This document shows positions 9,946 through 53,743 of a stretch of DNA of 64,000 nt, one piece after another. A program made the translations under genes and the position numbers. The stretch is from assembly GCA_964652995.1 (NCBI GenBank), contig CAZZCR010000004.1, positions 85,954 through 149,953 on the forward strand, read 5' to 3'. Below the pieces are notes generated by a model. That model was given only the letters and a program-made list of their open reading frames with translations. It had not been told where the DNA came from and searched no databases. How positions within the stretch are numbered: position 1 is the first letter of the stretch; each line of letters begins with the position of its first letter. This DNA comes from an uncultured Flavipsychrobacter sp. GTDB lineage: Bacteria; Bacteroidota; Bacteroidia; Chitinophagales; Chitinophagaceae.

Positions 9946-10134
9946 ATGGGGAAGTAGCAAATACAAAAAAGCGTCCCGACGGAGAGACGCTTTAAAGGTT
10001 TAGGTGGTGACAAGTAAAAGGGCTGTCAGACTGAATCAATTCACTACATTGACATTTTGTTATTCCGGTAGTAGGCTGTTTTTATCTTGCTAATTCAACA
10101 GGACAAAGGAACAGCAACGCGAAAAAATAAAAAC

Positions 10135-10174
10135 AGGTAAAAATACCTGTTTTTGTAAGCAGGTATTTTTACCT
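10135..10174 (-). terminator. rho-independent terminator of the two-component operon; member of a repeated palindromic element
   Basis: 15-bp perfect stem aggtaaaaatacctg / caggtatttttacct. On the minus strand it is followed by GTTTTTATTTTTTC. It lies 19 nt after the response-regulator stop. Confidence 0.6.
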
Positions 10175-10192
10175 AGTACATGAAAATTATCT

Positions 10193-35352: not shown

Positions 35353-36759
35353 ATGAAAAAGTTTTTTTTACTCTTGGCCTCGGGCTCTATCGCTCTGACG
35401 AGCGTGGCGCAGCAGCGCACAATGAACTTCGAACAGAAGGACAAAATGAAGACGTTCAAGTCGAGCGATATTCAGCGTCCACAAACTAGCGTAACTGCTA
35501 AGAAAGGAACAGCAGGCGGTGACAGGTGGTACAGCTACAACAGCTACCTGAATGACATGCTTACTGCAACTGTAACGCAAGAAGCTGGTTTCTCTTCTAT
35601 GCTGATATGGGATGATACCGTTCATCAGGTAAACTATACGTCTGGTCCGGCTAACATCAACATGCTGTCGATTGGTACTATTTTTGACCCATCGTCTGTT
35701 GGCTTCAACAATAACGATTACTATCCGGGTGCAATGGCTGTAGGTCCTACGGATGCTTACGTAGTTGACTCAATCGCTGTATTCGGTGTATACAAAGGAA
35801 ATACTGCAAAAGCATCTATCGTGGATACTATCCGTCTTGCTTTTGTAAAAGGTAACGGTGGCGCTGCGGCATCTGACGACATTTTCGGTGGTGCTCTTGG
35901 TGGCGGTGGTCACTACGGTGCTGCGACTTTCGTAAACATGCGTCACGACAGTCTTCGTAACACTGCTCATTCAGGCACAGTTGCTGTTGGAACTCCTACG
36001 CCAATGATTCAGGACATTGTTCTGGTTAACACAGGTGCATCGCCAGCTTGGGCTGACACGTCAGCTAACGGTATCTGGGGTGGTGCTATCAAACTGAATT
36101 CACCGATCAGCGTATCTGCTAACGGAATGGTAGGTATGTCTATCACTTACAAATCTGGTGAGTCTATCCCATCAGGTACAATGGTATTCAACGCTGTTAC
36201 AAACGCAGCTAACCACAACATTTTCCTCCCGATTGTTGGATATGCTTCTGACGCTGCTGGTGATGTACAGTGGGCTCCATACTATGCTGCACCAGATCCA
36301 AAAGCTGATAGCAACGTAGGTTTGTTCAAAAGGATGCCAGGAATCCTTGGATGGGCCGGACAGTATGTTCCAACTTGGGCTTGGTCTTCATCTGGAACTA
36401 CTTCAGGAGCTTCAATCCTTCAGTTCCCAGAAGTTAGCTTCCACGTAACATGTACTACTTGTGGTGTTGTTACTGCTCCTCCAACAGTTGTTGGCAATGT
36501 TGCAAACATCAGCAAAGTAAATGCATATCCTAACCCAGCAAACGACGAGCTGAACGTTCCGTTCACGCTTGATGCTACTGCTGACGTAACAGTTACACTG
36601 AGCAACATGCTTGGTCAGGTAGTTGCTACTAAGAGCATGAACAGCGTTTCTAAAGGAACCGCTACTTTCAACACAGAAAACCTGCCTGCAGGCCTTTACA
36701 ATTATGCTGTAATTGCAAATGGCAACCGCACAACGGGTCGTGTAGTTGTAGCACACTAA
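35353..36759 (+). CDS. secreted protein with T9SS type-A C-terminal sorting domain, unknown function (paralog of 7177-8568)
   Basis: Signal peptide MKKFFLLLASGSIALTSVAQ. C-terminal domain (AYPNPANDELNVPFTL…GLYNYAVIANGNRTTGRVVVAH). Blocks shared with the paralog: RWYSY, DYYPG, DAY.VDS, IR.AFV, NTGASPAW, GW.GQY.P.W.WSSSG, FH..C..CGV. Confidence 0.8.
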   Translation: MKKFFLLLASGSIALTSVAQQRTMNFEQKDKMKTFKSSDIQRPQTSVTAKKGTAGGDRWYSYNSYLNDMLTATVTQEAGFSSMLIWDDTVHQVNYTSGPANINMLSIGTIFDPSSVGFNNNDYYPGAMAVGPTDAYVVDSIAVFGVYKGNTAKASIVDTIRLAFVKGNGGAAASDDIFGGALGGGGHYGAATFVNMRHDSLRNTAHSGTVAVGTPTPMIQDIVLVNTGASPAWADTSANGIWGGAIKLNSPISVSANGMVGMSITYKSGESIPSGTMVFNAVTNAANHNIFLPIVGYASDAAGDVQWAPYYAAPDPKADSNVGLFKRMPGILGWAGQYVPTWAWSSSGTTSGASILQFPEVSFHVTCTTCGVVTAPPTVVGNVANISKVNAYPNPANDELNVPFTLDATADVTVTLSNMLGQVVATKSMNSVSKGTATFNTENLPAGLYNYAVIANGNRTTGRVVVAH

Positions 36760-40453: not shown

Positions 40454-43400
40454 CTATCGTTGGAGCACCAAACGCGAAATATGCTCTGATCCATCGCTGG
40501 CATTAAAGACACACAGATAAATACCTGACGTAACGCCTTGGTCAACGTAAAATACATTCAAACCAGACCCCATATACTGACTTGCAACAACTTTACCATC
40601 TAAGCCGATAACATTGAACATACCGGCAACTGACGTGCTGACATTGAGCAATCCTGTTGTTGGATTCGGGAAGACGTTGAAAACACCATCATTTGACGAT
40701 TCTCTGATGACTGCTGGTTTGGGTACGGTAACCGACATCCCCGACGTAGCAAAACAACCTGTGGAAGGCACCCTGTAAGTAATCGTGACGGAACCTGAGC
40801 TAACACCTGACACTACACCGGTTGCAGAGCCAATCGTCGCAACTGAAGGCGCACTACTTGACCACGTGCCTGTTGGTGAACTATTTGACATAGTCACAGA
40901 AGATCCGACAGCAACCGTAGACGGGCCACTGATAGCGGCAGGGGTAGCTTTCACCGTCAACGAGGATGTTTTGAAACAACCTGACCCCAAAGAATAGGTT
41001 ATCGACGCCACACCGGCACTAACCCCTGTAGCCACACCCGTTGACCCATCGATAACAGCTTTACCAGGGGTTCCTGATATCCAGGTTCCACCAGATGTAG
41101 TATTATAAAGCGCCACCGTCTGCCCCGCGCAAACACTCAAAGTACCGGTAATAGTTGCAACTGCAGCGTTCACAGTAACCCTTGTAACCGAAAAGCATCC
41201 ACCTCCCTTGTTGTAGGTTATGTTGGCAGTGCCCACCGCAACACCATTCACTACACCTGTACTGATACCCACATTTGCCTTTGTGGCTGCACTACTTGTC
41301 CAAGTTCCACCGGAAACTGAGTTTGACATACTTATAGACTGTCCGACACACACAATGCTATCTCCGACATTTGCGGGCAATGCCGCATTTATCGTCACAA
41401 CAGTTGTCCTGTAACACCCGAACGAATTTGTATAACAAATTGTTGCTGTACCAACAGATGCCGGTGTCACTATTGCTGTTGTCGAGGACGTAGATCCCAC
41501 AGAAGCAACGGAAGTATTTGAACTACTCCATGTTTGCCCTGCAGTTGTTGAGGAAAGGGAAATATTGGAACCAAAACACGTAAGCGCAGATCCTGAAATT
41601 GGCGCCGGAAGAGCATTGACGGTAATAGTGAAAGTCCGGCGGCAACCCGAGGATAGCGTATAACTAATTGTGGCGTTACCCGCGTTCACCCCAGACGCAA
41701 GGCCCGTTGCTGAACCAATCGCGACAACCGAAGGTGCACTACTGGACCATGTGCCACCTGACACAGTATTAGTCAGAGTGTCAGGAGCGCCAACACATAT
41801 CGAAGACAAGCCTGAAATAACAGAAGGCAACCCATTTACGGTCACCGATCGGGTGTTGTAACAGCCTGATGATGAAAGTGTATATGTAATAACTGCAGTA
41901 CCATCACTAACTCCGGAAACCATTCCGGAGGAGGAGCCGACAATTGCAACAGATGTGTTATTGCTGGACCACATGCCACCACCAAGTGAATTGGTAAGCG
42001 TAGTTGCGGAAGACTGACAAATCACGGCTGTGCCACCAATAGCAGGCGGAAGACCATAAACAGTGACTGTTGTAGTTTTGTAACAACCTGACCCAATAAT
42101 ATAGGTCACAATTGCAGAACCGGGAGCTATACCCGAAACCACTCCTGTAGAGCCATCAATGGCCGCAATCGAAGTGTTACTGCTACTCCAACTGCCCCCC
42201 GCAACCGGGTGACTTAAAGCTGTAGTAAAGCCAACGCACACACCGGTAGCTCCATCAATTGTAGCAGGAGTACTGTTCACTGTTACATTATATGTACTAA
42301 AACATGTAGGCCCTGTGCGATATGTAATTACCGCCACCCCTGCAACGGCGCCCGTAACGATTCCTGTAGCACTTCCAATTGCTGCTATTGCAGGAGAACC
42401 ACTGGACCAAGTACCACCGCCCGTAGAAACACTGAGCGTGCTGCTGCTACCAATACAAAATACCGAACTACCGCTAATGGATCCCGGACCGGCATTAACA
42501 GTGACAGTAGCCAACCGGGTACAACCCGTAACGGTGTAACTGATGTCGGAAGTGCCCGACGCAATCCCAGTCACTGTGGTTGTATTTGAGACCGATGTAC
42601 CTGTAGTTGCCACAGAGGAAACAGAACTACTCCACGTACCACCGGCGGTAGCTGAGTTTAGGGTGGTTGAATTACCCTCGCAAACTGTGAGTGTACCCGA
42701 AATAGCCGATGGCATAGTACCGACAGTTACCACGGCAACGCTTCGGCAACCTGTCCCGAGAACATATGAAATAGTGACCGTTCCCGCGCTGACACCTGCT
42801 ACGACACCGCTGACCGTATCGACAGTTGCACGACCTACATTGCCTGAGAGCCATGTACCGCCTGCGGTAGCACTGGAAAGACTCAGGGTATTGCCGACAC
42901 AAACTGCGGCGCCACCTGAAATGGCTGCCGGCAGTGGATTAACTGTAACGTCAGCTATGCGGTAACAACCATTCAATGCAGTATAGGTAATGATTGCATT
43001 TCCTGTCGAAACACCATAGGTAGCACCACTGATCGCATTGACTATTGAAACACTATCTGCAGAACTCTCCCATGCACCACCCGATGGGCTGCTACTGAGT
43101 GTAGTATTCGACCCCACGCAAATTGACAATGAACCAGTGATGGGCGAAGGAAGTGACTTAACTGTAAATGAGGTAGTCTTGAAACACGTAGCTGACACAT
43201 TGTACGTGATCACTGCGGTGCCTGCTGCAATACCCGTAACCACTCCGGTGGAACCGTCTATTGTGGCTATTGCTGTATTGCTGCTTGCCCATGTGCCGCC
43301 GGAAGAAGGATGACTCAATGTAGATGTAGCACCTACGCAAGCATTAGTAGTACCAGATATTGCTGCAGGAGCAGCATTCACAGTTACCTCAGTCACACTG

Positions 43401-46400: not shown

Positions 46401-48613
46401 AGCGTTGCAGAATAAACTGCCACGGGCGCCCCGGCCGGAACTGCGATAGTAATTGGAGAGGAAGACAGGGTAACAGCGGACACATTAGAAAAGCCGGAAA
46501 TTATTGCCGCGCTACTGAAAGTAATACTATAAAGAGTTGGACTCCCTGTAGTAGCAGTAAATGGTAATGATGCGCTTGTTGTGCCCGATGAAACTGACGG
46601 GCTTCCTCCGAGCGAAATTGTAACAGCCGCCGGTTGTGTTATAGTAACGGACTGGGTCTTCGTACAAGAATTAGCATCTGTAACGGTACAGGTATATGTT
46701 CCGGCAGTTCGACCGGAAATAGAAGTTGTTGTACCTCCCGAAGGAGTCCACGAATAAGTAAAGCCAGACGCACCACCTGATGCAGTGATGGTAGCAGCTC
46801 CGTTTGAACCACCATTGCAAGTTACGTTCGTGACAGACGAAACCGAAGTGGAAATGGCTGACGGTTGGGTAATGGTAACAGCCTGTGCTTTGGTACAACT
46901 GTTTGCATCTGTGACGGTACAGGTGTAGCTCCCTGCCAAAAGGGAAGATGCCGATGCCGCGGTTCCACCGGATGGAGCCCATGAATAGGATAAACTACCT
47001 GTTCCGCCGCTTGCGGAAATAGTTGCTGAACCGGTGGAGCCTCCATTACACGCAACATTGGTAACAGAAGAAACACTGGAAGAAATAGCCGATGGTTGGG
47101 TAATAGTAACAGCCTGAGTCTTTGTGCACGAGTTGCCATCAGTAACGGTACAAGTATAAATGCCGGCACTTCTTCCCGTGATAGTTGCAGTGCTACCTCC
47201 TGAAGGAGCCCATGAATAAGCCAATGTGCCGGTGCCACCCGATGCAGAAATAGTGGCGGCACCGTTGGAACCACCGTTACAACTCACATTTGTCACCGAG
47301 GAAACAGAGGTTGAGATCGCAGCCGGCTGGGTTATAGTCACAGATTGCTGTTTGGTACAGCTGTTAGCATCCGTTACCGTGCAAGTATAGGTACCCGCAG
47401 TCAGTCCGGTTGCAGAAGCTCCAGTTCCGCCGGAAGGCGACCATGCATAAGTTAAACCGCCTGTTCCACCGGAAGCGGAAATTGTAGCGGCTCCATTAGC
47501 TCCCCCATTGCAAGCGACATTTGTTAAAGAAGAAACCGACGTGGAAATGGCTGATGGCTGTGTGATGGTAACTGACACTGTCGCTGTACCCGAAGCCGCA
47601 TCGGAAACTGTACATGTATACGTGCCGGCTGAAAGACCTGAAGCAACTGATGACGACCCGCCAGAAGGGACCCATGAATAGGTGTAAGGAGTAGTACCAC
47701 CGGTTGGAGTCACTGTTGCAGTACCATTGGTTCCGCCAAAGCAACTAACATTTGTCTGACCACCCAACGCTGCAGTCAGCACGGAACCTATTGTAAAATT
47801 TCCTGCAGACCCGGTGACAACCATCGGACTAGATGATGGTGATGTAGTTGTGGTCCAGTTTGCTGTATTCAGAATAGCGGCGCGCATCGCGGCTACTGTA
47901 GAAAACGTACGGCTACCGGAATATACACCTCCGTTTTTCCCGGCAAAAAACAGATTATAGGATGACAGATCTCCGGGCAGATAACTTAGATTGTTGGTTG
48001 GCGAGCCTGAACTGAGCCAATTAGTGTACCCGGAAGTTAGTCCCTGAAATCCGATCATTGATATAGGAGACCCGTTAAATGTTGCGGGACTGGTACCGGA
48101 AGAGAAATTGGTTGAAGAATTTTCTGAAGAAGACGATGCCGAATAGATAAACATCTTGCTGGCCGATGTATTATTATTATACCCTCCGTTATTAAAGGGT
48201 CCACATCCGCAGGTAGTGCTTAGATTTGATGCCGTACCCACATCACACGAAACGGATACTGAAGGCGTGAATGTAAACGTAATCACAGTTCCTATAGGCA
48301 ATGTAGTACCCGTAGTGTTTTCCCATTTGGTAATACCGGTGGAAACAATAAAGGAATTGTTTGTTGCATTTGCATTTGAAGTGCTGTAAAACGAAGTGTT
48401 CGACATTTTAAAAAAAGTTCCGGGAGCCGCAGCCTTGGCCAACACGAACTGGTAGTACTTGACCGAACCCGTCACTACCGAGTTATAGCCGGTACAAAGC
48501 ACATCACCATAAGTAAGTGTTGTTTGGGCATTTGCCGTGATGGCGGAAAAAAGCACAATAAAATGTACCAGAAGGGGCATTAAGCCTACGCGGAGTTTTG
48601 AGACCATGATCAT
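40454..48613 (-). CDS. giant (about 2.7k aa) T9SS-secreted surface/adhesin-like protein with SprB-type, PKD and Big_2-like repeats
   Basis: Single 8.2-kb ORF. Signal peptide (…LFSAITANAQ), an N-terminal ~285-aa unique domain, 11 SprB-type repeats, one PKD-like domain (…GYIWVFGDGGT…), 17 Big_2-like repeats, and a T9SS C-terminal domain (FNVFPNPTTGLLNV…LVLQR). Start could be ATG 48613, ATG 48607 or TTG 48631. Confidence 0.9.
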   Translation of the reverse strand: MIMVSKLRVGLMPLLVHFIVLFSAITANAQTTLTYGDVLCTGYNSVVTGSVKYYQFVLAKAAAPGTFFKMSNTSFYSTSNANATNNSFIVSTGITKWENTTGTTLPIGTVITFTFTPSVSVSCDVGTASNLSTTCGCGPFNNGGYNNNTSASKMFIYSASSSSENSSTNFSSGTSPATFNGSPISMIGFQGLTSGYTNWLSSGSPTNNLSYLPGDLSSYNLFFAGKNGGVYSGSRTFSTVAAMRAAILNTANWTTTTSPSSSPMVVTGSAGNFTIGSVLTAALGGQTNVSCFGGTNGTATVTPTGGTTPYTYSWVPSGGSSSVASGLSAGTYTCTVSDAASGTATVSVTITQPSAISTSVSSLTNVACNGGANGAATISASGGTGGLTYAWSPSGGTGASATGLTAGTYTCTVTDANSCTKQQSVTITQPAAISTSVSSVTNVSCNGGSNGAATISASGGTGTLAYSWAPSGGSTATITGRSAGIYTCTVTDGNSCTKTQAVTITQPSAISSSVSSVTNVACNGGSTGSATISASGGTGSLSYSWAPSGGTAASASSLLAGSYTCTVTDANSCTKAQAVTITQPSAISTSVSSVTNVTCNGGSNGAATITASGGASGFTYSWTPSGGTTTSISGRTAGTYTCTVTDANSCTKTQSVTITQPAAVTISLGGSPSVSSGTTSASLPFTATTGSPTLYSITFSSAAIISGFSNVSAVTLSSSPITIAVPAGAPVAVYSATLTPSNASCTGTPVAFTVTVSSAALSASTSQTNVSCNGGSNGTATVSVSGGQSPYTYSWSPSGGSAASATGLVAGTYTCTVTDALSAVLTKTVTVTQPSSPVGGSTVVTNVSCQGGSNGAINLTPTGGVSPYTFNWGGGVTTEDRTGLVAGAYSCVVTDNNGCTATVSSTVTQPSSVVGGSTSVTNVACNGGATGAINLTPSGGTPSYTFNWGGGIVTEDRTGLSAGSYSCIVTDINGCTATVTATVTQPSALSGTTSVTNVSCFSGTNGAIDLTPSGGTPGYTYNWGGGITTQDRTGLAAGAYTCVVTDANSCTTTVNATVGQPSTPVGGTTAVTNVSCAGGTNGAIDLTPSGGTPGYTYNWGGGVTTQDRTGLSAGSYSCVVTDASGCTGSVTATVTQPTGLSATITGTNITCFGLTNGSATVSASGGTGTLSYSWAPSGGSLASATGLSAGTYTCTVADASSCSLNKVVTITVPSQLTISSIGNSGPVCTGATLSLSSSVSGGTSPYSFSWSGPSSFTSTVQNPSVPSVTASSAGVYTLALTDANGCSFTGTNTTVVVVNNSPVAVMALSPNPSVVGLPVSYSSSTLGVSGYIWVFGDGGTSTLSSSARSYSAAGTYTASLSVVDTNGCVDTAFSVITVNSTMGPIAGNPSFCIGDAPIALTHPISGGTWTSSNPARASVGSSTGLVTGISPGTCTITYNLGGGFVQTKTAFVYPLPLPITGLAYTCEGFTSGLTNTSVGSGTWSSSNTAVATIGTGSGVVSGNSVGTTTITYTAYSGCFTTRTHTVHASPSTPSGPSFLCAGDTATFLSSPAGGVWSSSNSGVVTIGSSNGLVSGVAGGTSTISYTMPTGCGRGTVITAGPLPASISGIISLCPGGYVTVTSATSGGTWSSSNTSVATIGSTGVITAIAPGTSTITYSLASGCRRTAVITVNAAPSASTGAFELCVGGSATLSNSTSGGTWSSSSSSIATVGSSSGIVNGVGAGTVNVTYRVAGPGCFSVTEVTVNAAPAAISGTTNACVGATSTLSHPSSGGTWASSNTAIATIDGSTGVVTGIAAGTAVITYNVSATCFKTTSFTVKSLPSPITGSLSICVGSNTTLSSSPSGGAWESSADSVSIVNAISGATYGVSTGNAIITYTALNGCYRIADVTVNPLPAAISGGAAVCVGNTLSLSSATAGGTWLSGNVGRATVDTVSGVVAGVSAGTVTISYVLGTGCRSVAVVTVGTMPSAISGTLTVCEGNSTTLNSATAGGTWSSSVSSVATTGTSVSNTTTVTGIASGTSDISYTVTGCTRLATVTVNAGPGSISGSSVFCIGSSSTLSVSTGGGTWSSGSPAIAAIGSATGIVTGAVAGVAVITYRTGPTCFSTYNVTVNSTPATIDGATGVCVGFTTALSHPVAGGSWSSSNTSIAAIDGSTGVVSGIAPGSAIVTYIIGSGCYKTTTVTVYGLPPAIGGTAVICQSSATTLTNSLGGGMWSSNNTSVAIVGSSSGMVSGVSDGTAVITYTLSSSGCYNTRSVTVNGLPSVISGLSSICVGAPDTLTNTVSGGTWSSSAPSVVAIGSATGLASGVNAGNATISYTLSSGCRRTFTITVNALPAPISGSALTCFGSNISLSSTTAGQTWSSSNTSVASVGSTSSTTAIVTPASVGTATICYTNSFGCYRTTVVTINAALPANVGDSIVCVGQSISMSNSVSGGTWTSSAATKANVGISTGVVNGVAVGTANITYNKGGGCFSVTRVTVNAAVATITGTLSVCAGQTVALYNTTSGGTWISGTPGKAVIDGSTGVATGVSAGVASITYSLGSGCFKTSSLTVKATPAAISGPSTVAVGSSVTMSNSSPTGTWSSSAPSVATIGSATGVVSGVSSGSVTITYRVPSTGCFATSGMSVTVPKPAVIRESSNDGVFNVFPNPTTGLLNVSTSVAGMFNVIGLDGKVVASQYMGSGLNVFYVDQGVTSGIYLCVFNASDGSEHISRLVLQR
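40725..44470 (-). repeat. 17 tandem ~72-aa Big_2-like Ig repeats (coding)
   Basis: Recurrent pattern C.G….L…..GG.W.SSN…A.V….G.V.G…GT..I.Y….GC…..VTV...P, counted 17 times in the translation. Confidence 0.75.
44990..47780 (-). repeat. 11 tandem ~76-aa SprB-type repeats (coding), in blocks of 5 and 6 split by a ~106-aa spacer domain
   Basis: Recurrent pattern TNV.C.GG.NG.A.…GG..PY.Y.W.P…………GL.AG.Y.C.VTD.N.C. The last five repeats use the variant F/YNWGGG..T.DRTGL. Confidence 0.75.
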
Positions 48614-48750
48614 ATGAGTTTTCGTTTTCAATTTTTGCCTTAAATCACACCATATAAAAGTGTGAACAAACAGTGATTCCTATTTATAATCCACTTAGAA
48701 ACAGGACATAGTTTGGAACAGCAACATTATTTAATCGACCGTAGTTACGA

Positions 48751-48794
48751 TCAGGTAAAAACACCTGTTTTCAAAAACAGGTGTTTTTACCTGA
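48751..48794. promoter_or_regulatory. perfect 44-bp palindrome in the divergent control region (candidate operator)
   Basis: tcaggtaaaaacacctgtttt-ca-aaaacaggtgtttttacctga, with 21-bp arms. Each arm contains its own CAGGT-N6-ACCTG mini-palindrome. It ends 22 bp upstream of the TAAGTTTG box at 48816. Confidence 0.5.
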
Positions 48795-48815
48795 TATGAT
48801 AAGTTCATTGAGGAA

Positions 48816-48823
48816 TAAGTTTG
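48816..48823 (+). promoter_or_regulatory. candidate -7 promoter box (TAnnTTTG) for the tail-collar triplet
   Basis: TAAGTTTG lies 37 nt upstream of the ATG at 48861. Confidence 0.45.
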
Positions 48824-48860
48824 TACGAACAATTTTTCTCACCATCAAATACACAAAACA

Positions 48861-49388
48861 ATGGAGGTATTCTTAGGATCAATTCTACCAATGGCATTCC
48901 CGTTCGCCCCCCGCGGATGGGCCTCATGTGAGGGACAAACAATGCAAATAGCGCAGAACACTGCACTATTCTCCCTACTGGGGACAAAATATGGCGGCAA
49001 TGGGCAAACCACCTTCTGCCTGCCAGACCTGAGAGGTCGAATGGTAATCGGGCAGGGGCAGGGACCCGGACTCCCCTCTTATCAGGTAGGGCAGTCCGGT
49101 GGCTCCTCACAAGCAACACTAACTGTGAATCAGCTCCCTGCGCACACACATCAGGTTGTGGCTAAAGCGAACTCATTCGGCGCAACTACCGGCGACCCTG
49201 CGAACGCATTCTTTGGTGGTGGCGGTCCGACTATCTACGACACTGCATGGGACAACACAAGCACAATGAACCCTGCATGCATGACGGCATCACCGACCGG
49301 TGGCAGTCAGCCGTTTTCAATTCTTAACCCCTATGTGGCCATGTACTACAACATTGCTACACAGGGCATTTTTCCTTCACGCAACTAA
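48861..49388 (+). CDS. phage-tail-collar-domain protein (MdpB-like), paralog 1 of 3
   Basis: MEVFLGSILPMAFPFAPRGWASCEGQ…ALFSLLGTKYGG…FCLPDLRGRMVIGQGQG…LPAHTH…NPYVAMYYNIATQGIFPSRN is the classic Collar-domain layout. No signal peptide. Confidence 0.85.
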   Translation: MEVFLGSILPMAFPFAPRGWASCEGQTMQIAQNTALFSLLGTKYGGNGQTTFCLPDLRGRMVIGQGQGPGLPSYQVGQSGGSSQATLTVNQLPAHTHQVVAKANSFGATTGDPANAFFGGGGPTIYDTAWDNTSTMNPACMTASPTGGSQPFSILNPYVAMYYNIATQGIFPSRN

Positions 49389-49403
49389 AAAAAACACAAA
49401 ATC

Positions 49404-49928
49404 ATGGAAGCATATATAGGAACGATCATGCCAGTTGCATTTCCTTTCGCTCCACGCGGATGGACATCATGCCAAGGCCAACTACTTGCGATAAATCAAA
49501 ACCAGGCACTCTTTTCGCTCATCGGCACAACATACGGCGGGGATGGTATCCAAACATTTGCCCTACCCGACCTGCGCGGCAGGGTGATAGTGGGTCAGGG
49601 GCAATCTACTACCGGACACTACTACACGATGGGCGAGAAAAGTGGGCAGTACCAAACTACCTTACTCACAACACAGATACCAGCCCACACACACGCCATC
49701 AGCGTAAAATGCAATGCAATGGCTGCGTCAACGGGCGATCCAAACAATGCCTATTTTGGAGGAGGAGGACCGGTAACATATGACGCAACCCAGGACAACA
49801 CGCTAATGAATCCCGGCACGGTTGTAACCGGCACGGCAGGATCTGCCGTCCCTGTTCCGCTAACCAATCCGATCTTGCCAATGTATTATTGCATCAATAC
49901 AACCGGACTATTCCCATCAAGAAACTGA
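49404..49928 (+). CDS. phage-tail-collar-domain protein (MdpB-like), paralog 2 of 3
   Basis: Same architecture and length (174 aa). Lies 15 nt after paralog 1. Confidence 0.85.
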   Translation: MEAYIGTIMPVAFPFAPRGWTSCQGQLLAINQNQALFSLIGTTYGGDGIQTFALPDLRGRVIVGQGQSTTGHYYTMGEKSGQYQTTLLTTQIPAHTHAISVKCNAMAASTGDPNNAYFGGGGPVTYDATQDNTLMNPGTVVTGTAGSAVPVPLTNPILPMYYCINTTGLFPSRN

Positions 49929-49957
49929 TCTCATAACAATAAAAAACAGACAAAAAA

Positions 49958-50482
49958 ATGGAAGCATATATAGGATCAATTATCCCAATGGCTATAAGCT
50001 ATGCACCGGTTGGATGGATGTCGTGCGAGGGGCAACAACTTCCAATTGGAAACTACTCCGCACTTTTTGCACTGGTAGGAACCTACTATGGAGGTGATGG
50101 TGTCAGCACATTCTGCCTGCCAGACCTACGCGGAAGAGCGATTATCGGTCAGGGACAAGGCCCCGGACTGCCTGACTACACGGTTGGCGAGGCTCAGGGG
50201 AATACTACCATAACGCTAACAACAAGTCAGCTACCACCACATACTCACCAGATAAATGTTCATGCAAATTCGTTTTCTTCATCGACAAACAACCCTGCAA
50301 ACGCATTTTTTGGCGGAGGAAGCACAGCGATCTACGATGCTGCCGGCGATGGCACCAATATGAATATGCAATGTATTACTGCTGCACCGACAGGAAACAA
50401 TCAGCCGGTAAACATACAAAATCCATACCTCGCTATGTATTACAACATCTGTATTGAAGGGATATTTCCTGCAAGAAACTAA
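49958..50482 (+). CDS. phage-tail-collar-domain protein (MdpB-like), paralog 3 of 3
   Basis: Same architecture (174 aa). Lies 29 nt after paralog 2. Closest in sequence to paralog 1. Confidence 0.85.
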   Translation: MEAYIGSIIPMAISYAPVGWMSCEGQQLPIGNYSALFALVGTYYGGDGVSTFCLPDLRGRAIIGQGQGPGLPDYTVGEAQGNTTITLTTSQLPPHTHQINVHANSFSSSTNNPANAFFGGGSTAIYDAAGDGTNMNMQCITAAPTGNNQPVNIQNPYLAMYYNICIEGIFPARN

Positions 50483-50501
50483 TCGTGAAAACAAATAAAA
50501 A

Positions 50502-50536
50502 GGGGCTGTTCCTATAATCAGGAACGGCTCTTTTTT
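50502..50536 (+). terminator. rho-independent terminator (possibly partial) after the tail-collar triplet
   Basis: Stem gctgttcc / ggaacggc (one G-U pair) with an 8-nt loop, followed by TCTTTTTT. Confidence 0.5.
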
Positions 50537-50562
50537 GAAGCACACTATTCAAAAAGAAATAA

Positions 50563-51714
50563 ATGAAACAGATTGGCATTCTACTTCCGAGATCCGGAGT
50601 ATTTCCTACGATGACTTTCGACCTCGTAGACGGGTTCAAAAACGCTTTGAACGAGTCAGGTGCAAACAACTATGAACTTAAAACAGCCGGCATCGGGCAT
50701 GGTGGAAATAACAAAGAGATCTACACTGCAGTTGAGCAACTCATACTAAACGGTGCTTCAATAATTGTTGGATACTTCAACCCCTCAACAGTAACAATAC
50801 TGGAGCCTCTCATGAAGGCATCGAACACGCTGATGATATCATTGGATGCAGGATACCATTTGCCACCGTCCGTACAACAGCCACAAAACACATTTACAGT
50901 ATCACTACACGGAACACTTGCAGCACGCATAACTCCCTTGATAGCTGCAAAGCGTGGGGCAGAAAAGTTCGCATTCACCTGTTCATTCTATGACGCAGGA
51001 TATAGGATACCGTTTGGGCTATTTAACGGGTTGGATGAAAACAATTGTCAGATCGTTTTCAACCACACAACAAAGCTTAAAAGCAGCGAATTCACGATCG
51101 AGCCTCTGATTTCGTTTATCACAAATAACACAGATACAGCGATCTTCTCTGCCACATGTGCCGATATGACAAAAGACCTGTTTGAAGCTGCGGCTGTAAG
51201 CTCAGCATTCACAGATGTACCATGGTTTGCCAGCTCATTCACCGCTGAGGAAACCTGGCTTTCGCAGATGACGTTTCCGAATGCCACGATATCTGCAATA
51301 GTACCCTGGGGGCGACAACTAAACAACCCTGAGAATGATACCTTCGCAACCAAAATGACCGAAAAAAACAGAACACCAAACTTATTTTCCCTGTTGGGCT
51401 GGGAGGCAGGACTGATAGTAGCGGAAGCATTGAAACACGCGAACGTATCAGCGCAGATCGCCGCCTTAAAAACAAGTTCATTCTCAACACCCAGAGGAAC
51501 GCTTCACTTTGACCCAAACACGTTGGAAGCAATAACACCATTATATCAGGGGACAATTGTTCGCAACGAAGACAATGGCACCTGTCGTTTGGCTATTGGA
51601 GAGGCAATACCTGAAAATATTATAAAAATGAACTACAGTAAATTGAGAACAGAATCGGCACTACTAGAGAACGGAAACACTTCGTGGTTCAACTGTTATG
51701 GGTGTCTCGATTAA
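50563..51714 (+). CDS. type-I periplasmic-binding-protein-fold (LivJ/AmiC-like) protein lacking a signal peptide
   Basis: Starts directly with the PBP beta-strand (MKQIGILLPRSGVF…) and continues …IIVGYFNPSTV… …LLGWEAGLIVAEALK… …PRGTLHFDPNT…, the Leu/Ile/Val-binding/AmiC pattern. No N-terminal hydrophobic segment. C-terminal CYGC. Confidence 0.65.
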   Translation: MKQIGILLPRSGVFPTMTFDLVDGFKNALNESGANNYELKTAGIGHGGNNKEIYTAVEQLILNGASIIVGYFNPSTVTILEPLMKASNTLMISLDAGYHLPPSVQQPQNTFTVSLHGTLAARITPLIAAKRGAEKFAFTCSFYDAGYRIPFGLFNGLDENNCQIVFNHTTKLKSSEFTIEPLISFITNNTDTAIFSATCADMTKDLFEAAAVSSAFTDVPWFASSFTAEETWLSQMTFPNATISAIVPWGRQLNNPENDTFATKMTEKNRTPNLFSLLGWEAGLIVAEALKHANVSAQIAALKTSSFSTPRGTLHFDPNTLEAITPLYQGTIVRNEDNGTCRLAIGEAIPENIIKMNYSKLRTESALLENGNTSWFNCYGCLD

Positions 51715-51746
51715 ACAACCATAGACAAAGACACTAAAAACAAGAA

Positions 51747-52682
51747 ATGAGGATCGGTATTCTTTGCAGCAACCTTATTGCAATCCCAACTGTGCAATTG
51801 CTTATGAAACATCATGAGGTGGTGGGGATAGGTGTACCCGAAAAGGGAATAAAAATACGACACATACTTGAAAATGTTACTAATGGTAGCGGCGTCGAAG
51901 TAACAAGGATGTCGAGGGGGAATATCAAAAACCAAATGATAGAATGGATCAATATTATTCAACCGGAAATTGTGTTGGTTGCGACATTTCCGTTCAGGAT
52001 ATCGGAGGAAGTGTTGTCATTGCCCGCATATGGATTCTTAAATCTACACTTTGGCCTCTTGCCTGAAATGCGTGGTCCGGACCCAGTGTTCGAAAGCATC
52101 AGGCAACAAAAGAACAAAGCCGGAGCTACCATTCACGTGATGGACGGATCGTTTGACACCGGGCCAATTGTAAAAAGAGAAGAATTCCCACTACCTGCTC
52201 ACTTTACTTACGGAATGCTATCAGCGAAACTCGCCCATACAGGAGCCGACATGGCACTGACAACATTAACTCAGATCCAAGCCCAACAAAACATAGCTTC
52301 AATCGCACAGAATGAAACCATGAGTTGTTACTACCCTGCATTAAGTCCGCAACAACTTACCATCGACTGGAACACGATGAGTTCACGGGAGATCATTGCA
52401 CTTATTAATTCAATGAACCCTATAAGCAGGTCTTGCACACCAACATCTGTGAACGGATGGAACCTGGGAATATGCTATGCTACCCTTGTGAACCTTTCAG
52501 GCGACACTACCCGCTACAGACCCGGACAGGTGATCACAGTTGACGCACAAAACGGACTATTGATATTTACCAAAGACAATCTTGCGTTAAAAGCAGAAAC
52601 TATCCACATCGAAGAAGGGTACTTCCCTGGTTATACATTAGCAGCCTTCGGAGTACTGCCCGGCATGATATTCGGGACATAA
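51747..52682 (+). CDS. Fmt-like formyltransferase paralog (Formyl_trans_N + C-like domains)
   Basis: 311 aa, the same size as Fmt. Catalytic motif LNLHFGLLPEMRGPDP (N-x-H…LLP..RG) and the Asp segment HVMDGSFDTGPIV are present. The C-terminal part parallels the Fmt C-domain (LTIDWNTMSSREIIALINSMNP). The Fmt tRNA-contact loop (basic RPxGRG-type insert) is not evident. Confidence 0.75.
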   Translation: MRIGILCSNLIAIPTVQLLMKHHEVVGIGVPEKGIKIRHILENVTNGSGVEVTRMSRGNIKNQMIEWINIIQPEIVLVATFPFRISEEVLSLPAYGFLNLHFGLLPEMRGPDPVFESIRQQKNKAGATIHVMDGSFDTGPIVKREEFPLPAHFTYGMLSAKLAHTGADMALTTLTQIQAQQNIASIAQNETMSCYYPALSPQQLTIDWNTMSSREIIALINSMNPISRSCTPTSVNGWNLGICYATLVNLSGDTTRYRPGQVITVDAQNGLLIFTKDNLALKAETIHIEEGYFPGYTLAAFGVLPGMIFGT

Positions 52683-52690
52683 CACAGGCG

Positions 52691-53743
52691 TCAACCCAAT
52701 GCTGTAAGCGACAACAACCGGTCCTTTATGATGTATAGGGGCGACGCAATAGCATTCACATATTGAAAATTCCCGTCCCTATCATTTTTTATTGATAGCT
52801 GAATTCCACTTGCCTCGCTTTGAATGGCATTGGCTACATACCTTCCCTTTGCCCTATCGTAAAAGAAATATGGCGATCCTGAAGAACCAAAACGGAAGTA
52901 CCCCTTAATAAGGTATCTATACCCTTCAAAACGATAATTCCCGCCTATATCATCGGGGAATATCCCAAAATGATCGAGCATTCCTTCAATCTTGGCAGTA
53001 TTTAACAAACGCCCTGCCGGCCCGCTGGGTGAACTCTGCAAACAGTAAAGTGGCTGTTCATCATCCTCAATGAAATCAAAGTTAAGGTCAGCTACCGGTA
53101 TCCTGTCTATTATTTCAGCCGGGACACCGACAATACGGTACAATGCGATATCTTCCTGATAGAACGCTTCAACAAGCTCTACCGGCACAAGAAATGTATG
53201 CTTTCCGGCGTCGCCATCAAATAGGCGCATAGACGGATCGAACAACTGACTTAGGTTGATGTCGCCATAGAAATCCTGTCCGCGAAACTGGAAAATGAGA
53301 TGTGGCGTGCATATCTTTTTCTCAGAAAGAGTGACCCAACGAGTATCAAAACGCTTTTGTTTCAATATTGCAGCAATATTCTGCAAAGCACTAGGGTCAT
53401 TAGTAGCCAAGTATTTCTTCTGCGTATACTCATCTGTTTCGTAATGCTGCTCCATGAAACGACTCTGTGACCCATCAAGGATAGAGAATATCTCCTGACG
53501 GTACCTTGCGATATCGATGGAGCGAAAGTACCCTTGCTGTAGCCTCAGATTATGGGCAACACTCAGAAAATACCCCTTACCGATATGAAATGCGGAAATG
53601 TTGTTTTCAAATATCCTTCTGTTGGGCTCATCAGCATTATAAACCCACATAATTCGATGCAAGGGAGAACTGAGTTCGTCAATTAGCTGGCGTTTATCGG
53701 CTTTAACAGAATCGGCATCGTTGGTGTCAAATTGCAGGAACAT
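52691..53743 (-). CDS. signal-peptide-less trypsin/chymotrypsin-fold serine protease-like protein
   Basis: Candidate catalytic triad in canonical order: His64 (FLSVAHNL), Asp198 (EDIALYRI), Ser288 (FGSSGSP). The N-terminus is acidic and hydrophilic. His-to-Asp spacing is ~134 aa. Confidence 0.6.
   Translation of the reverse strand: MFLQFDTNDADSVKADKRQLIDELSSPLHRIMWVYNADEPNRRIFENNISAFHIGKGYFLSVAHNLRLQQGYFRSIDIARYRQEIFSILDGSQSRFMEQHYETDEYTQKKYLATNDPSALQNIAAILKQKRFDTRWVTLSEKKICTPHLIFQFRGQDFYGDINLSQLFDPSMRLFDGDAGKHTFLVPVELVEAFYQEDIALYRIVGVPAEIIDRIPVADLNFDFIEDDEQPLYCLQSSPSGPAGRLLNTAKIEGMLDHFGIFPDDIGGNYRFEGYRYLIKGYFRFGSSGSPYFFYDRAKGRYVANAIQSEASGIQLSIKNDRDGNFQYVNAIASPLYIIKDRLLSLTALG

Follow-up and report, generated by a model that had tools for sequence, protein, structure and literature searches.

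Can a run of phage-type tail-collar genes, a binding-protein gene and a formyltransferase gene that sit among housekeeping genes in a bacterial chromosome belong to one system and, if so, to which? The question is raised by a 64,000-nucleotide (nt) stretch of DNA from an uncultured Flavipsychrobacter species (Bacteroidota, Chitinophagaceae), called the window below. Around nt 48,751 to 53,743, the original prediction had grouped a palindrome, three Collar-domain (PF07484) genes, a gene for a protein with the type I periplasmic-binding-protein fold (PBP-like), a gene for a paralogue of methionyl-tRNA formyltransferase (Fmt-like) and a protease-like gene into a single uncharacterised locus, flanked by ordinary genes and a giant adhesin. 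Comparison with other Bacteroidota draws the boundaries differently. Judging from conserved gene order, nt 48861-52682, which hold the Collar, PBP-like and Fmt-like genes and are referred to here as the cassette, make up the accessory half of an operon that is conserved among Bacteroidota and whose sixth gene encodes a type IX secretion system (T9SS) surface protein.

For this comparison the PBP-like gene served as the marker of the cassette. A scan of one genome per species gave 150 relatives, the best 80 of which supplied the sample of loci (34 from Flavobacterium, 32 from Chryseobacterium, 11 from Chitinophagaceae and 3 others); 87 loci (numbered with an L below), Pedobacter included, were looked at in total. 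Across three Bacteroidota classes and in varying genomic contexts the order is one to three Collar genes, the PBP-like gene, the Fmt-like gene and a gene for a T9SS type-A protein. Collar open reading frames (ORFs; 237 altogether) stand beside the PBP-like gene in all 84 loci that contain it, and the Fmt-like gene is present in 82 of these 84, with contig ends accounting for the remainder. Three Collar copies are found in 74 loci, two in 9 and one in 3. Further, the Collar genes lie 5' and the Fmt-like gene 3' of the PBP-like gene in F. johnsoniae, Chryseobacterium and Pedobacter alike, the order is kept even with the most divergent PBP homologues (28-30% identity), and most Flavobacteriia show a 4-nt overlap between the PBP-like gene and the Fmt-like gene. 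The earlier proposal of an uncharacterised unit is upheld for the three-plus-two arrangement, which is conserved in about 85 syntenic loci, and the co-occurrence of Collar, PBP-like and Fmt-like genes across Bacteroidota rules out the random adjacency that had been named as its alternative.

None of the five accessory proteins (three Collar, PBP-like and Fmt-like) carries an export signal. The cassette moves as a block between genomic contexts, since no flanking gene family is shared by more than 17 of the 87 loci compared. In Taibaiella lutea (L038, Chitinophagaceae), the Collar proteins and the adhesin head are of the Flavobacteriia type, which is consistent with horizontal transfer of the whole operon between classes. 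The base composition of the window is unremarkable and gives no hint of recent transfer. A few loci carry additional genes. In three distant lineages (L007:6384-7687, L038:6612-7909 and L088:6071-7302), a cytoplasmic AspH-like 2-oxoglutarate (2OG) oxygenase (PF05118) and a protein of about 170 amino acids (aa) with a HEAGH (HExxH) motif are encoded directly upstream of the Collar genes; L007 has an extra gene, weakly sulfotransferase-like, and in L170 a 2OG-FeII_Oxy_3 gene lies 3' of the T9SS protein gene. These oxygenase genes may represent an optional protein-modification add-on.

The giant adhesin, first taken to be a mere flank of the locus, is instead the most consistent partner of the cassette. 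SprB-like genes adjoin the cassette at 74 loci, downstream at 68 and upstream and divergent at 6, including the window clade; in the 68 loci, the SprB-repeat ORF begins 6-36 nt past the Fmt-like stop codon on the same strand. Once L007, L036, L074, L015, L018, L088 and L089, which were recognised by criteria other than a SprB-like ORF, are added, at least 81 of about 86 cassette loci adjoin a large T9SS-type surface protein; in this count L006 and L068 have no such neighbour, L013 is ambiguous, and L014 and L079 are incomplete. In the window clade the adhesin gene is divergent from the cassette, and in most other genomes the equivalent gene lies directly 3' of the Fmt-like gene. From this conserved neighbourhood, the window adhesin appears to be the cassette's own partner, which in this clade lies inverted on the upstream side. 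Its layout is a signal peptide (ending ANA-Q), a head of about 250 aa designated type I, 11 SprB repeats, immunoglobulin-like domains and a type-A sorting domain. Its F. johnsoniae orthologue has SprB repeats and is annotated as 'T9SS type A sorting domain-containing protein'. Contigs often end within the adhesin gene, as repetitive sequence would predict.

A few details concern the adhesin gene and its surroundings. The mechanical start of its ORF is a TTG at 48631, and in-frame ATGs 18 and 24 nt downstream (MIMVSK...) are more plausible; no TAnnTTTG box for it was found on the minus strand within 48560-48900. Another gene for T9SS cargo, a small one (468 aa, Por_Secre_tail 1.9e-12), occupies 35353-36759 of the window, 3.7 kb past the adhesin 3' end. 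At L005 (18879-19712) and 16 other Flavobacterium loci, the adhesin gene is followed directly on its 3' side by a gene whose product, about 280 aa long, has a signal peptide, is outer-membrane beta-barrel-like with a weak TDE1717-family match and was seen in Flavobacterium only. The features of the window are collected in Table 1.

Table 1. Features of the cassette, its partner adhesin and the adjoining elements (positions are those of the window)
Feature	Position	Strand	Basis
Giant T9SS surface adhesin, 2725 aa	40454..48631	-	Pfam SprB 4.7e-91, Big_2, PKD_4, Por_Secre_tail 29.8 bits
Type-A T9SS C-terminal sorting domain (residues 2653-2720)	40472..40675	-	PF18962 Por_Secre_tail 29.8 bits vs cut-off 27
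Type I head domain (residues ~36-290)	47762..48526	-	Colinear BLAST to adhesin N-termini in Flavobacterium, Chryseobacterium, Taibaiella
Perfect palindrome, 22+2+22 nt, between adhesin start and Collar promoter	48750..48795		Folding, shuffles
Candidate Bacteroidota -7 box (48816-48823) and Collar 5' leader	48816..48860	+	Near-invariant in five related loci
Collar protein 1, 175 aa	48861..49388	+	PF07484 3.3e-27; PHROG tail families
Collar protein 2, 174 aa	49404..49928	+	PF07484 6.1e-28
Collar protein 3, 174 aa	49958..50482	+	PF07484 2.4e-24; Gp10_C 2.3e-5; PDB 8kec long tail fibre 4.5e-9; T4 gp12
Stem-loop and T-run after Collar3	50496..50537	+	-23.4 kcal/mol, z = -7.3
Cytoplasmic type I PBP-fold protein (PBP-like), 383 aa	50563..51714	+	Peripla_BP_6 (PF13458) 6e-24
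Fmt/ArnA-like two-domain formyltransferase (Fmt-like), 311 aa	51747..52682	+	Formyl_trans_N 2e-17
Protease-like gene, 350 aa	52691..53743	-	Converges 8 nt past Fmt-like stop

The link between cassette and adhesin is seen most closely in the head domain. A hidden Markov model of the type I head (alignment A4) matches in 69 cassette loci and in no SprB-like ORF outside cassettes. It matches 40 of 1.84 billion representative proteins, nearly always at residues ~20-280, and searches of Pfam, NCBIfam and the PDB, including with its profile, gave no match. In L170, one Collar gene, the PBP-like gene and the Fmt-like gene are followed by a gene for a 430-aa protein that consists of a signal peptide, a type I head (hhalign probability 99.8%, E 5e-29) and a sorting domain; as this protein has no SprB stalk, the stalk is dispensable. 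Collar type switches with head type: a type II head, unrelated to type I, occurs in a Flavobacterium/Pedobacter subclade and goes with one or two 185-aa Collar proteins. The heads of L015 and L088 are likewise not homologous to type I, and a single universal adhesin head was rejected on these grounds. A needle fused into the adhesin was also considered and rejected, as the Collar domain was not found inside adhesins.

What the accessory proteins might contribute can be approached through their families. The three tail-collar proteins of near-equal length described from the window alone were recovered by Pfam profile search, and each covers the PF07484 Collar profile in full (positions 1-57 of 57). 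They begin at the Collar domain itself, which leaves them without a signal peptide, and a conserved GIFPSRN strand stands at the end. An HxH motif (His95, His97), invariant in alignment A5 and shared with T4 gp12/gp37, is a putative metal site. The best PHROG match (1.6e-22) is to tail and tail-fibre families, with a likeness to the T4 gp12/gp37 fibre tip. In 63 Flavobacteriia loci, the paralogues form three clusters that correspond exactly to gene position (63/63/63). The window clade differs in that the paralogues of one genome resemble each other more, the three of L012 clustering together. Identity is 70-88% in the collar region versus 32-47% at residues ~130-150, the most variable part. 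In L083 (8777-9931), two 185-aa Collar paralogues of the type II clade are near-identical in a central stretch, LNxASAKLKASSANADETAPEGNFPANAASPVYSGNG, which points to gene conversion at the very place where the three-gene clade varies most.

A precedent for such a gene triplet comes from the virophage DSLV2, whose three consecutive Collar proteins of about 19 kDa co-purify 1:1:1 as heterotrimeric 16-nm needles and bind Synechococcus lipopolysaccharide (LPS) via a variable head patch at residues 120-145 (PMC12724248, J Virol 2025). Like those of DSLV2, the cassette genes are three consecutive PF07484 genes of the same orientation, each for a protein of about 19 kDa, with positional orthologue groups, a conserved collar region and a variable central head patch (residues ~120-150). 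Unlike those of DSLV2 or T4, they are chromosomal in free-living Bacteroidota, without capsid or baseplate; further, they are always followed by PBP-like and Fmt-like genes and tied to a T9SS adhesin. Viral contigs (IMG/VR) also hold small Collar ORFs of ~165-205 aa in tandem sets of 3, 6 or 9 (nine in L090, six in L095, and three each in L091-L093, L096 and L100), and no PBP-like or Fmt-like gene was found beside these arrays.

The absence of an export signal from the PBP-fold protein, noted at the outset, is borne out by an AlphaFold2 model (predicted local distance difference test score, pLDDT, 89) in which strand 1 starts at residue 2 and leaves no room for a signal peptide; the same holds across the family. 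The homologues fall into 114 clusters, and every organism-named one is from Bacteroidota. The closest folds, at template modelling (TM) scores of 0.66-0.79, are aromatic-acid binding proteins, such as those of R. palustris (4evq, 4eyg and 4zpj), and the cytoplasmic amide sensor AmiC of Pseudomonas aeruginosa (rank 9-11, TM ~0.68); for solved binding proteins the scores are 0.70-0.79. With all of these the protein shares the type I PBP fold and, with AmiC, also the lack of a signal peptide and of adjacent transporter genes. Indeed, no ABC transporter permease or ATPase gene stands next to the PBP-like gene in any locus, and the assignment as an ABC-transporter substrate-binding protein, which the fold would fit, was rejected for want of both export signal and transporter genes. 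There are also differences: sequence identity to AmiC and the R. palustris proteins is just 14-18%, the family has a conserved C-terminal W-x-N-x-Y-x-C tail (modelled without confidence) that sets it apart from all four, and the partner of AmiC is an antiterminator whereas that of the PBP-like protein is a formyltransferase.

The Fmt-like protein resembles Fmt and the N-terminal domain of ArnA in having Formyl_trans_N and C-terminal domains, an SLLP-type motif and the catalytic Asn/His/Asp residues. Its Asn99, His101 and Asp137 align with the catalytic Asn108, His110 and Asp146 of E. coli Fmt, and the triad is kept in at least 97% of 83 family members; the earlier description of a full-length paralogue with apparently intact catalysis agrees with the alignments, which show a likeness to Fmt over both domains. 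However, the protein scores 128.7 bits against TIGR00460 (fmt), below the 201.5-bit cut-off. In Fmt, tRNA is bound by an insertion loop in the N-terminal domain and by a lysine-rich interdomain linker. No alignment to Fmt takes in the N-terminal 40 residues of the Fmt-like protein (those to profiles and PDB entries begin at residues 41-68), so that the region including the tRNA-binding loop is unaligned, and the linker reads YYPALSPQQLTIDW, as against YAEKLSKEEARIDW in E. coli Fmt and HAPKLFKEDMAIDW in the window's own Fmt. With the lysine-rich linker replaced by PALSPQQ, Met-tRNA is an unlikely substrate. The protein was thus rejected as a genuine Fmt, being under the equivalog cut-off and lacking the tRNA-binding determinants. 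The genuine fmt lies, as had been reported, at the start of the window, where its 3' end was located at nt 3-365 (formerly 1-368).

Similarity to ArnA-type enzymes raises the alternative, foreseen in the original prediction, of a sugar-nucleotide formylation pathway. The Fmt-like protein matches the ArnA formyltransferase domain (NF005998, 64.9 bits; PDB ArnA, 1.6e-10) and sugar N-formyltransferases with E values of 3e-8 to 8e-4, versus 2e-20 for Fmt. As genes for an aminotransferase, a dehydratase or a glycosyltransferase are not a recurrent feature around the cassette and the similarity to Fmt is far higher, a pathway of the ArnA, WlaRD or VioF type was rejected.

Non-coding elements bear on how the cassette may be expressed. 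The terminator-like hairpin reported at 50502-50536 is present (at 50496-50537), but the view that it separates the Collar triplet from the PBP/Fmt pair was not sustained. Of 83 loci, 79 have an equivalent hairpin after the last Collar gene, with sequences unrelated between lineages, and the median folding energy is -16 kcal/mol there versus -1.9 after the first Collar gene. The hairpin is therefore an internal feature of the operon, conserved in structure and position. Comparison with the genes for major subunits in pilus operons makes a partial terminator or 3' stabiliser probable, one that gives a high ratio of Collar to downstream product. The candidate promoter box TAAGTTTG, said to lie just downstream of the palindrome, was located there and is the sole TAnnTTTG in 48560-48900; as TAnnTTTG occurs upstream of Collar1 in just 13 of 81 loci, a shared promoter motif was rejected.

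The palindrome itself is perfect as described, with a length of 46 nt and not 44. Either strand gives a folding energy of about -32 kcal/mol (z = -9.6), and 100 shuffles produced no arm matches. Four related Flavipsychrobacter loci have kept the palindrome, and Taibaiella L011 has a related hairpin, of lesser length, upstream of Collar1. A second copy at ~10128-10175 of the window (ACAGGTAAAAATACCTGTTTTTGTAAGCAGGTATTTTTACCT), between convergent genes, carries a compensatory C-to-T / G-to-A change, which suggests a small family of hairpins in this genome that are like repetitive extragenic palindromes (REP) or bidirectional terminators. The palindrome is not peculiar to the cassette and, because the second copy sits between convergent genes, is unlikely to be an operator specific to it. 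No Rfam RNA family and no ARAGORN tRNA was found in the window.

The protease-like gene was confirmed in its convergent position and lacks a signal peptide. Its family comprises 909 homologues at 63-72% identity across Chitinophagales, a conserved orphan family in varied neighbourhoods without the cassette. Orthologues in Nemorincola and on two other contigs have unrelated neighbours with no Collar, PBP-like or Fmt-like gene nearby; the gene adjoins the cassette in four close Flavipsychrobacter loci only and is absent from cassette loci elsewhere. Its membership of the unit was therefore rejected. An S46 peptidase is among its neighbours in L002/L003. The label of trypsin-fold serine protease is plausible: His64 (VAHNL), Asp198 (DIALY) and Ser288 (GSSGxP) are invariant in 14 sequences (62-71% identity), and the top Foldseek matches of a mediocre model (pLDDT 62) all have the PA-clan/chymotrypsin fold (E ~4e-4, TM 0.3-0.5). 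The catalytic triad thus supports the label, while the fold assignment is soft, as Pfam, NCBIfam and PDB searches, profile included, found no match but a faint Peptidase_S6 at the Ser motif.

Housekeeping genes (H+-pyrophosphatase, DEAD-box helicase, topoisomerase I, ruvX, waaA and serine dehydratase) make up the wider flanks, and ruvX, waaA and the protease-like gene are unrelated neighbours of the cassette. As had been observed, no phage structural or integrase genes are around; neither these flanks nor the 87-locus comparison, in which no phage-like gene family recurs, gives substance to the prophage remnant once offered as an alternative. A degraded prophage or tailocin was rejected, as lysis genes are also lacking and PHROG tail matches are confined to the Collar genes. 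PADLOC models gave no match to the six proteins (E up to 0.1), no typical defence-island neighbours were found around the cassette, and NCBIfam had no match to the Collar, PBP-like and protease-like proteins or the adhesin head. Further, a literature search found no description of the cassette, the virophage precedent (PMC12724248) being the exception. The earlier claim that the combination fits no nameable system still stands: each protein is in or near a known family, and the combination matches no described system. The cassette is best read as an undescribed accessory system for an adhesin, new in kind, the mechanism of which we infer as follows.

In the reading that we favour, and to which we give about even credence, the cassette is the accessory operon half of a T9SS adhesin, with a Collar needle, a PBP/Fmt pair and a partnership of needle and head. 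The three Collar paralogues would come together 1:1:1 in a short needle that resembles the tip of a tail fibre, with an HxH metal site and a variable binding tip; such a needle is proposed because the three consecutive Collar proteins of DSLV2 have been shown to form one. Owing to the hairpin, the Collar proteins would outnumber the products encoded downstream. The PBP-like protein would work as a pair with the Fmt-like protein, the PBP-fold subunit binding or presenting a ligand in the manner of AmiC and the Fmt-like subunit transferring formyl from 10-formyl-tetrahydrofolate to an amine other than Met-tRNA, the acceptor most likely being a component of the system itself. In function, the needle would be partnered with the variable N-terminal head of the adhesin, whether as a binding tip, bridging lectin or cognate ligand, and needle and head together would set what the cell surface sticks to. 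A more specific form, in which the signal-less heterotrimeric needle is matured by a PBP-gated formyltransferase and becomes the exchangeable tip or cognate ligand of the T9SS adhesin head, is in our view unlikely.

Co-variation offers suggestive backing for the needle-head and PBP/Fmt pairings. Beside the type switches, partial Mantel tests over 60 loci gave r = 0.60 (p = 0.001) for head versus Collar given PBP and Fmt, r = 0.70 for PBP versus Fmt given Collar and r = 0.02 for head versus Fmt given Collar, although these correlations are confounded by shared ancestry and rate differences, the head and the Collar tip evolving fastest. Several other observations weigh against the favoured reading. 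The accessory proteins are signal-less, whereas the adhesin leaves the cell by way of Sec and the T9SS; in this compartment paradox, contact between needle and head would need an unrecognised export route, release by lysis or contact before export. Two Chryseobacterium loci are without an adjacent adhesin. The head is variable, with at least three unrelated types. In the window clade the Collar proteins show no stable positional groups and may form three distinct homotrimers instead. The acceptor of the Fmt-like enzyme could be a small molecule or a sugar. Finally, functional linkage is argued wholly from conserved gene order.

The compartment paradox disappears if the PBP/Fmt pair, joined in some lineages by 2OG oxygenases, modifies the adhesin in the cytoplasm before Sec export, or else an amino- or aminoacyl-sugar of the LPS that anchors type-A cargo, with the Collar proteins as an intracellular scaffold or glycan-binding subunit; the enzymes and the unexported adhesin precursor would then share the cytoplasm. 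Cytoplasmic modification of an adhesin before export is known from HMW1C, which acts on HMW1, and from Aah/TibC, which act on AIDA-I/TibA, and in these systems too the gene for a cytoplasmic transferase stands in tight linkage with that for a large exported adhesin. The likeness to the ArnA formyltransferase domain, the AspH-like oxygenases and HExxH proteins next to the cassette in L007, L038 and L088, the 2OG-FeII_Oxy_3 gene of L170 and the constant type-A sorting domain of the cargo all fit. However, HMW1C and Aah/TibC are glycosyltransferases that act on the adhesin itself without Collar-type partners, whereas the chemistry of the cassette is putatively formyl transfer. Sugar-pathway genes do not recur, the Fmt-like protein is nearer to Fmt than to any sugar N-formyltransferase, and, with Collar taken into account, the divergence of the head does not follow that of the Fmt-like protein. 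Abundant Collar proteins, three fixed paralogues and a hypervariable tip would also be left unaccounted for, and we consider this explanation improbable. A sensory or regulatory module, in which the PBP-fold protein senses a small ligand like AmiC and controls expression or activity of the adhesin via the Fmt-like and Collar proteins, is doubtful to a greater degree. AmiC is a cytoplasmic regulator of the same fold that acts on a partner protein, the family lacks signal peptide and transporter genes, and the hairpin just upstream of the PBP-like gene could serve as an attenuator; but Pfam and NCBIfam scans found no DNA- or RNA-binding domain in the cassette, the strictly conserved Fmt-like triad points to chemistry over signalling, three abundant structural paralogues would be unusual in a regulator, and hairpin sequences that are unrelated between lineages argue against a specific antiterminator site.

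SprB-type adhesins are phage receptors in Flavobacterium, and the Collar proteins could accordingly be captured phage receptor-binding modules that mask the adhesin head or poison virion assembly by co-assembling with tail fibres. The matches to phage tail and tail-fibre families (PHROG and PDB 8kec), the hypervariable tip, the switching of Collar type with head type and a cytoplasmic location suited to blocking phage assembly agree with such interference. It would, on the other hand, leave the PBP/Fmt pair without a role, the six proteins have no PADLOC match and no phage, integrase or defence-island neighbours, and a gene order that stays fixed across family-level divergence, in strict synteny with the adhesin, speaks more for a cellular structure than for an arms-race module; we rate the idea as slightly less probable again. 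Least credible, with a very small probability, is either the six-gene system of the original prediction (palindrome, Collar triplet, PBP, Fmt and protease) or a null in which the genes are random neighbours or a degraded prophage. The close convergence of the protease-like gene and its adjacency in four close Flavipsychrobacter loci speak for the six-gene grouping, and the 909 homologues in unrelated neighbourhoods and its absence from cassette loci outside Flavipsychrobacter speak against it; the nulls are countered by the syntenic loci and by flanks of housekeeping genes without phage structural or integrase genes.

Among known adhesin operons, the F. johnsoniae spr operon, sprC-sprD-sprB-sprF, resembles the one described here in combining a giant SprB-repeat T9SS surface adhesin with dedicated accessory genes. 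Co-transcription of such accessory genes with the giant adhesin of F. johnsoniae has been reported (PMC12618676). In contrast to SprB and other type-B cargo shuttled by PorP/SprF, the cassette-linked adhesins carry type-A sorting domains, and the accessory proteins are unrelated to SprC, SprD and SprF and have no export signals. To our knowledge, every known helper of T9SS adhesins (SprC, SprD, SprF, PorV and PorP) is an envelope protein. Cytoplasmic helpers that are strictly inherited together with a T9SS adhesin are unexpected and without a described counterpart.

Bacteroidota from soil, plant roots and fish owe their gliding, colonisation and biofilm formation to T9SS adhesins. The operon gives a context to chromosomal triplets annotated as 'microcystin-dependent protein / tail collar', to Fmt paralogues that are unlikely to act on tRNA and to a rare, unannotated adhesin head; further, the 'phage tail protein' label on the three Collar genes can mislead prophage predictors. 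The same operon is present in the genetically tractable F. johnsoniae UW101 (ABQ07054-ABQ07059, with ABQ07059 as the adhesin). If the needle does serve as the tip of the adhesin, the cassette would represent an unrecognised route for signal-less proteins to the Bacteroidota cell surface, and a case of phage receptor-binding modules domesticated for cell adhesion or recognition.

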